Assembly: GCF_016903815.1 (NCBI RefSeq)
Contig: NZ_CP069973.1
DNA from: Escherichia coli
Lineage (GTDB): Bacteria; Pseudomonadota; Gammaproteobacteria; Enterobacterales; Enterobacteriaceae
DNA: 64,000 nt
Strand: one strand, 5' to 3'
Of this stretch, positions 23,431-25,077 are shown in pieces; the first letter of the stretch is position 1, and each line of letters begins with the position of its first letter. The notes below the pieces were generated by a model that was given only the letters and a program-made list of their open reading frames with translations, did not search any database and was not told the DNA's origin. The translations under genes were made by a program, and so were the position numbers.

Positions 23431-25077
23431 ATGAATGGCGCACAGTGGGTGGTACATGCGTTGCGGGCACAGGGTGTGAACACCGTTTTCGGTTATCCGG
23501 GTGGCGCAATTATGCCGGTTTACGATGCATTGTATGACGGTGGCGTGGAACACTTGCTGTGCCGACACGAGCAAGGTGCAGCAATGGCGGCTATCGGTTA
23601 TGCCCGTGCTACCGGCAAAACTGGCGTATGTATCGCCACGTCTGGTCCAGGTGCAACCAACCTGATAACCGGGCTTGCGGACGCGCTGTTAGATTCCATC
23701 CCCGTTGTTGCTATCACCGGTCAGGTATCCGCACCGTTTATCGGCACTGACGCATTTCAGGAAGTGGATGTACTGGGATTGTCATTAGCCTGTACCAAGC
23801 ACAGCTTTCTGGTGCAGTCGCTGGAAGAGTTGCCGCGCATCATGGCTGAAGCATTCGACGTTGCCAGCTCAGGTCGTCCTGGTCCGGTTTTGGTCGATAT
23901 TCCAAAAGATATCCAGTTAGCCAGCGGCGATCTGGAACCGTGGTTCACCACTGTTGAAAACGAAGTGACTTTCCCACATGCCGAAGTCGAGCAAGCGCGT
24001 CAGATGCTGGCAAAAGCGCAAAAACCGATGCTGTACGTTGGCGGTGGCGTGGGCATGGCGCAGGCAGTTTCGGCTTTGCGTGAATTTCTCGCTGCCACAA
24101 AAATGCCTGCCACCTGTACGTTGAAAGGGCTGGGCGCAGTAGAAGCAGATTATCCGTACTATCTGGGCATGCTGGGGATGCACGGCACCAAAGCGGCGAA
24201 CTTCGCAGTGCAGGAGTGCGATCTACTGATCGCCGTGGGCGCACGTTTTGATGACCGGGTGACCGGCAAACTGAACACCTTCGCACCACACGCCAGCGTT
24301 ATCCATATGGATATCGATCCGGCAGAAATGAACAAGCTGCGTCAGGCACATGTGGCATTACAGGGTGATTTAAATGCTCTGTTACCAGCATTACTGCAGC
24401 CGTTAAATATCGATGACTGGCAGCAACACTGCGCGCAACTGCGTGATGAACATGCCTGGCGTTACGACCATCCTGGTGACGCTATCTACGCGCCGTTGTT
24501 GTTAAAACAACTGTCGGATCGTAAACCTGCGGATTGCATCGTGACCACAGATGTGGGGCAGCACCAGATGTGGGCTGCCCAGCACATCGTCCACACTCGC
24601 CCGGAAAACTTCATCACCTCCAGCGGATTAGGCACCATGGGTTTTGGTTTACCGGCGGCGGTTGGCGCACAAGTCGCGCGACCGAACGATACCGTCGTCT
24701 GTATCTCCGGTGACGGCTCTTTCATGATGAATGTGCAAGAGCTGGGCACCGTAAAACGCAAGCAGTTACCGTTGAAAATCGTCTTACTCGATAACCAACG
24801 GTTAGGGATGGTTCGACAATGGCAGCAACTGTTTTTCCAGGAACGATACAGCGAAACAACCCTTACTGATAACCCCGATTTCCTCATGTTAGCCAGCGCC
24901 TTCGGCATCCCTGGCCAACACATCACCCGTAAAGACCAGGTTGAAGCGGCACTCGACACCATGCTGAACAGTGATGGGCCATACCTGCTTCATGTCTCAA
25001 TCGACGAACTTGAGAACGTCTGGCCGCTGGTGCCGCCAGGTGCCAGTAATTCAGAAATGTTGGAGAAATTATCATGA
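23431..25077 (+). CDS. ilvG: acetolactate synthase II large subunit (intact, not frameshifted)
   Basis: Uninterrupted 548-aa ORF with ThDP-enzyme motifs; stop overlaps the ilvM start (ATGA). Confidence 0.96.

Follow-up and report, generated by a model that had tools for sequence, protein, structure and literature searches.

The window, by which we mean the whole stretch of 64,000 nucleotides of Escherichia coli DNA that was analysed, carries an ilv operon on its + strand, with the ilvL leader present, ilvM directly downstream of ilvG and a gene order that is the same as in K-12 and in strain 7/2. According to the preliminary description, the ilvG gene of this operon is an uninterrupted reading frame of 548 codons. 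A six-frame list of open reading frames returned exactly that, a single ATG-to-TGA frame at 23431..25077 (+) which encodes 548 amino acids and whose 3' end reads TTA TCA TGA. Because the chance of 548 random codons being free of stops is about 4e-12, this frame is a real gene. Its assignment as ilvG was likewise borne out: the product matches the NCBIfam model NF006524, an equivalog that describes the catalytic subunit of acetolactate synthase 2, over its full length, with residues 1-547 aligned to profile positions 1-547 of 548 and a score of 1073 bits where the cutoff is 738. The protein scored above the cutoffs only of models for acetohydroxy-acid synthase (AHAS) II and of generic biosynthetic models, and below those of the AHAS I/III-type equivalogs. 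In Pfam, the three domains of a ThDP enzyme are uninterrupted and each lies far above its gathering score, the N-terminal Pyr domain (PF02776, TPP_enzyme_N) at residues 1-115, the central domain (PF00205, TPP_enzyme_M) at 186-321 and the C-terminal PP domain (PF02775, TPP_enzyme_C) at 374-522. The protein carries E47, which we take to be the catalytic glutamate, and a GDG-X(24-27)-N motif, presumably the one that binds ThDP and Mg2+, in the form G427-D428-G429...N455; the motif closes with a single N (D454-N455) and not with NN. Residues F109, M250, R276, V375, M460 and W464, which we assume to be those implicated in AHAS II catalysis or specificity by mutagenesis work, were all found. The RefSeq ilvG coding sequence of strain 7/2 (WP_001012630.1) has the same length and coordinates and is 100% identical over window positions 23150-25400. 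A solved structure of IlvG was sought for placing variant residues, and none was found; the best solved-structure match is AHAS I (PDB 6LPI, E=1.2e-162, aligned over residues 2-544), whose large subunit IlvB shares the enzyme family and the three-domain ThDP fold with IlvG but is a paralogous isozyme partnered by IlvN, not IlvM.

Upstream of ilvG, the ilvL gene (23193..23291, +) encodes a leader peptide of 32 amino acids, MTALLRVISLVVISVVVIIIPPCGAALGRGKA, which is rich in Ile, Val and Leu codons and matches the NCBIfam equivalog NF007744 over its full length (81.9 bits, cutoff 59). It is followed on the + strand, at 23315..23347, by a terminator hairpin that was read directly from the sequence as CCCCCGCACC-GAAA-GGTCCGGGGG and then T8. 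We take this hairpin to be the ilvGMEDA attenuator, its role here being a predicted one. In a simple terminator scan, only the mirror image of the attenuator on the minus strand came up, and the attenuator itself on the + strand went unreported. Positions 23122..23411, within which the hairpin lies, match the Rfam 5'-UTR family RF02744 ('Soft rot Enterobacteriaceae Rev 39 5'UTR') with 158.8 bits, the gathering score being 88; this family seems to represent the ilvGMEDA leader, and the match is consistent with a conserved structured leader. Directly 5' of ilvG lies ilvX (23378..23428, +), a small open reading frame for a peptide of 16 amino acids that is annotated in both K-12 and 7/2.

At the other end of the gene, the junction between ilvG and ilvM (25062..25077, +) consists of a GGAG Shine-Dalgarno sequence at 25062-25065 and, 8 nt further on, an ATGA start/stop overlap at 25074-25077, in which the ATG of ilvM (25074-25076) overlaps the TGA of ilvG (25075-25077). 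The preliminary description had proposed that the two genes are translationally coupled, and the overlap and the Shine-Dalgarno sequence suggest that translation of ilvM may be coupled to termination of ilvG. The ilvM gene (25074..25337, +) encodes the small, regulatory subunit of AHAS II, an ACT-domain protein of 87 amino acids (Pfam ACT_5) that scored 133.9 bits against the equivalog NF008362 (cutoff 68). This protein is the same as K-12 IlvM, the DNA showing 2 synonymous differences, and the coordinates of the gene agree with the annotations of K-12 and strain 7/2. It is followed by ilvE (25357..26286, +), the gene for the branched-chain amino-acid transaminase, which starts with the ATG at 25357 and is a 930-bp gene in K-12 and 7/2, and by ilvD (26351..28201, +), a 616-amino-acid open reading frame for dihydroxy-acid dehydratase that is collinear with K-12 ilvD.

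The K-12 lesion and the window allele

In K-12 MG1655, ilvG is annotated as a pseudogene (b4488) of 1645 bp, compared with 1647 bp for the window gene. The two are alike in locus, in their ilvL-ilvX-ilvG-ilvM-ilvE-ilvD-ilvA context and in start and stop positions, with 96.7% nucleotide identity; they differ in that b4488 is missing an AT, has a TGA at codon 328 and has lost TPP_enzyme_C. A global alignment of the genes showed 54 substitutions and a single gap of 2 bp, at gene positions 977-978. The dinucleotide absent from K-12 is the AT at 24407..24408 of the window (+), a site at which three other intact alleles were also compared. Here the window reads AAT ATC GAT GAC (N-I-D-D) and K-12 reads AAT CAA TGA (N-Q-stop); over codons 326-328, where the deletion that marks K-12 reads TTAAATCAATGA, the window has TTAAATATCGATGA. 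Thus, the pairwise alignment that the preliminary description had put forward as a check shows that the 2-bp lesion of K-12 is not in the window copy, and neither this alignment nor the list of reading frames revealed any frameshift or premature stop within 23431..25077. The K-12 product ends at residue 327, right after the central domain, and thereby lacks the entire C-terminal ThDP/Mg-binding domain (TPP_enzyme_C). Since the stop comes before this domain, K-12 is without AHAS II. Putting the AT back into K-12 ilvG gave a full frame of 548 amino acids, and its product is the same as IlvG from 08-00022, a natural isolate; the K-12 state is therefore a derived one, in which an otherwise ordinary allele has lost 2 bp. 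In the literature, ilvG is described as frameshifted in K-12 and as intact in B strains, where it mediates valine resistance (PMC3446290; PMC8605374), and the genotype of an MG1655 stock is listed as 'ilvG, rfb-50, rph-1' (PMC2808357).

Distribution and variation of intact ilvG

How common each state of ilvG is was assessed with a 60-mer centred on the K-12 junction, which was compared with 5,426 complete E. coli genomes. The exact K-12 60-mer is present in 340 of the 5,426 (~6%), and the three exact matches that were sampled, including ER1709 and an O16:H48 strain, were all laboratory strains of the K-12 type; in ER1709, the annotation flags ilvG as a 'frameshifted' pseudogene of 1645 bp. Every one of the other sampled rows (37/37) spans two more bases than the query and hence carries two extra bases, the share of intact ilvG being gauged from these samples, with 617 genomes too divergent at the 60-mer for matching. 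Three sampled non-K-12 genomes, 08-00022, O111:H8 2009C-3675 and Z226-1, have an intact ilvG coding sequence of 1647 bp. An intact ilvG is the usual state, the frameshift of K-12 the exceptional one. The particular allele of the window recurs elsewhere: at least 30 complete genomes contain a 100% identical copy of the 2251-bp segment from ilvL to ilvM, most of them from human isolates and including strains 7/2, 50579417, AR_0067, DA33137, ST2747 and Z1002. At lower stringency, this segment is matched at >=99% by 105 genomes and at 95-99% by 5,320.

Compared with the repaired K-12 gene, the 54 substitutions in the window ilvG comprise 46 synonymous and 8 non-synonymous changes, and the third codon position accounts for 44 of the 54. 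The resulting dN/dS is ~0.05, and we read the pattern of substitutions as the signature of purifying selection. The intact IlvG proteins of 08-00022 (WP_001012607.1), O111:H8 (WP_001012624.1) and Z226-1 (WP_001012577.1) have, like that of the window, 548 amino acids encoded by 1647 bp, and in these three strains as well as in 7/2 the locus resembles the window in its ATGA overlap with ilvM and its flanking genes. Natural alleles vary by a few polymorphic residues, and the window IlvG differs from that of 08-00022 (which equals K-12 with its AT restored) at 8 positions. Six of these 8 differences (S146, D328, A342, I370, V387 and P494) recur in other intact alleles; the remaining two, S214 and L322 (P214S and Q322L), occur only in the allele shared by the window and 7/2, among the five alleles compared. 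Outside the coding sequence of ilvG, ilvL, the attenuator hairpin with its T-run, ilvX and the Shine-Dalgarno regions are the same as in K-12. Between 23142 and 23440, a stretch of 299 bp that reaches just past the ilvG start, K-12 differs at one position, 23365, and the AT-rich, promoter-proximal stretch upstream of ilvL (23057-23141) holds a cluster of ten substitutions.

Expected activity and origin of the allele

The product of the window gene would be the 548-amino-acid catalytic subunit of acetohydroxy-acid (acetolactate) synthase II, an enzyme of the ThDP/Mg2+/FAD type. Together with IlvM it is predicted to form AHAS II, which would condense pyruvate with pyruvate or with 2-ketobutyrate in the first common step of Val, Leu and Ile synthesis. 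The genes ilvL-ilvX-ilvG-ilvM-ilvE-ilvD-ilvA would be transcribed as one unit under the ilvL attenuator and, without a premature stop in ilvG, the polarity on ilvEDA that is reportedly seen in K-12 should be absent. AHAS II is not feedback-inhibited by valine. AHAS I (IlvB) is valine-sensitive, and K-12 is left with only the valine-sensitive AHAS I and III. Since AHAS II is insensitive to valine, a strain with an intact allele should grow on minimal medium supplemented with valine, unlike K-12, and should escape the isoleucine starvation that valine causes in K-12. From the biology of AHAS II, together with the phenotype data comparing B with K-12, in which strains with intact ilvG are valine-resistant (PMC3446290), there are good grounds to infer that the strain from which the window comes would be valine-resistant.

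An open frame could nevertheless encode a product that is inactive or poorly expressed, owing to P214S, Q322L or the promoter substitutions, and the strain would then still be valine-sensitive. The observations that point this way are that S214 and L322 are specific to this lineage among the five alleles compared, and that the region before the leader, at 23057-23141, carries ten substitutions. They are outweighed by a dN/dS of 0.05, a score far above the equivalog cutoff, the conservation of catalytic and cofactor-binding residues, the identity of the allele in at least 30 complete genomes (with 105 genomes at >=99% for the segment) and the agreement of the leader, the attenuator and the Shine-Dalgarno regions with K-12, all of which make such a loss of activity improbable. 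We regard it as similarly doubtful, no observation speaking for it, that S214, L322 and the ten substitutions at 23057-23141 make AHAS II activity or the expression of ilvGMEDA differ from that of the common E. coli allele; if these variants did matter, they would mark a clinical lineage with a distinct branched-chain amino-acid physiology.

The preliminary description had concluded that the window is not from a K-12 derivative, with the reservation that it might come from an ilvG+ revertant, that is, from a valine-resistant K-12 derivative in which a compensating mutation has restored ilvG. Such revertants exist and arise readily (PMC8605374), and an open ilvG frame does not by itself rule one out. 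However, the documented K-12 revertants regain the frame by losing 1 bp at the premature TGA and are otherwise K-12 in sequence (PMC8605374), whereas the window has the ancestral AT of natural alleles and not a nearby compensating 1-bp deletion, carries 54 substitutions within ilvG alone, and is 100% identical to clinical isolates in its ilvL-ilvM segment. The divergence extends well beyond the gene. A BLAST comparison of the whole window with MG1655 positions 3,925,000-3,999,999 gave seven collinear blocks covering K-12 positions 3,927,839-3,993,224, and identity per block was 94.1-98.3% over the 64 kb; the flanks thus fall short of the >99.9% identity to MG1655 looked for in a member of the K-12 lineage, and the window also has an extra IS200 and is missing rffG-rffH. 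Given the 94-98% identity, the IS200 insertion and the absence of rffG-rffH, the window does not come from a K-12 derivative. This part of the preliminary description can consequently be put more strongly than it was, and its reservation is refuted by the divergence from K-12: on the evidence of ilvG and of the whole window we rejected a revertant, the probability of which is practically nil. Because the window contains none of the seven loci normally used for MLST, its lineage is characterised by the strains that match it identically, among them 7/2, AR_0067, ST2747 and 50579417.

It could also be argued that the open frame is an artefact of assembly or sequencing, in which, say, a true frameshift is hidden by an indel error. 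Nothing specific speaks for this beyond the generic caveat that attaches to any single sequence. Against it stand at least 30 complete genomes from independent assemblies, in which the 2251-bp ilvL-ilvM segment is 100% identical, and the site itself, which reads AAATATCGATGAC as it does in the independent allele of Z226-1. With so many independent assemblies in complete agreement, an artefactual frame was rejected as very unlikely indeed.

We therefore favour, with a probability of roughly 0.96, the reading that ilvG in the window is simply the wild-type allele that natural E. coli outside the K-12 lineage ordinarily carry, the activity of its product, its coupling to ilvM and the valine resistance of the strain all being predictions. 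An intact ilvG is already known as the textbook wild-type state, and its presence here advances no open question. Its value is that of a strain diagnostic and a sanity check only: it marks the window as non-K-12, and it leads one to expect that the strain grows when valine is present and that ilvEDA is expressed normally, without polarity.

Other features of the 64-kb window

The comparison with K-12 brought out several further differences along the window. In the cluster for enterobacterial common antigen (ECA), rffG-rffH (~1.9 kb, K-12 positions 3972523-3974468) is missing between wecC and rffC. A 40-bp spacer at 45240..45279, with its own GAGGGAG Shine-Dalgarno sequence, takes its place; wecC ends at 45239 and rffC starts at 45280, with ATG where K-12 has GTG. 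This wecC-rffC spacer junction is common to 116 of the 5,426 complete genomes, and in 117 of the 5,426 no match to rffG-rffH was detected anywhere at megablast sensitivity. Fuc4NAc, a residue of ECA, derives from a dTDP-sugar precursor that RffH and RffG produce (PMC7439462), and consequently the lineage without rffG-rffH presumably depends on the O-antigen rmlA/rmlB paralogues for the dTDP-Fuc4NAc of its ECA.

In the kup/rbsD interval, the window has 706 bp that are extra relative to K-12 (5384..6089), with a reading frame for an IS200-type Y1 transposase at 5477..5986 and a match to the Rfam Hfq-binding sRNA family STnc490 at 5395..5518, in the 5' end of the insertion. This 706-bp insertion looks like an ordinary IS200 copy. 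In one of the best-matching genomes, that of Survcare321, the stretch 33000-57000 apparently includes ~712 additional bases, which may be a further IS200 copy. The segment at 29745..32615, which contains ilvY, ilvC and ppiC, shows 94.1-94.8% identity to K-12, compared with 97.5-98.3% in the flanking blocks; the block may have arisen as a recombination patch, or it may evolve faster locally. Small differences in intergenic length relative to K-12 were seen between ilvA and ilvY (~55 bp absent) and between aslB and aslA. The window further includes an rrnC-type rRNA operon with tRNA-Glu, Asp and Trp (14679..19904), the argX-hisR-leuT-proM tRNA cluster (53188..53624), the GlmZ sRNA (57188..57394) and the trxA 5'-UTR thermometer (38420..38519), and these ordinary landmarks confirm its chromosomal position near oriC.
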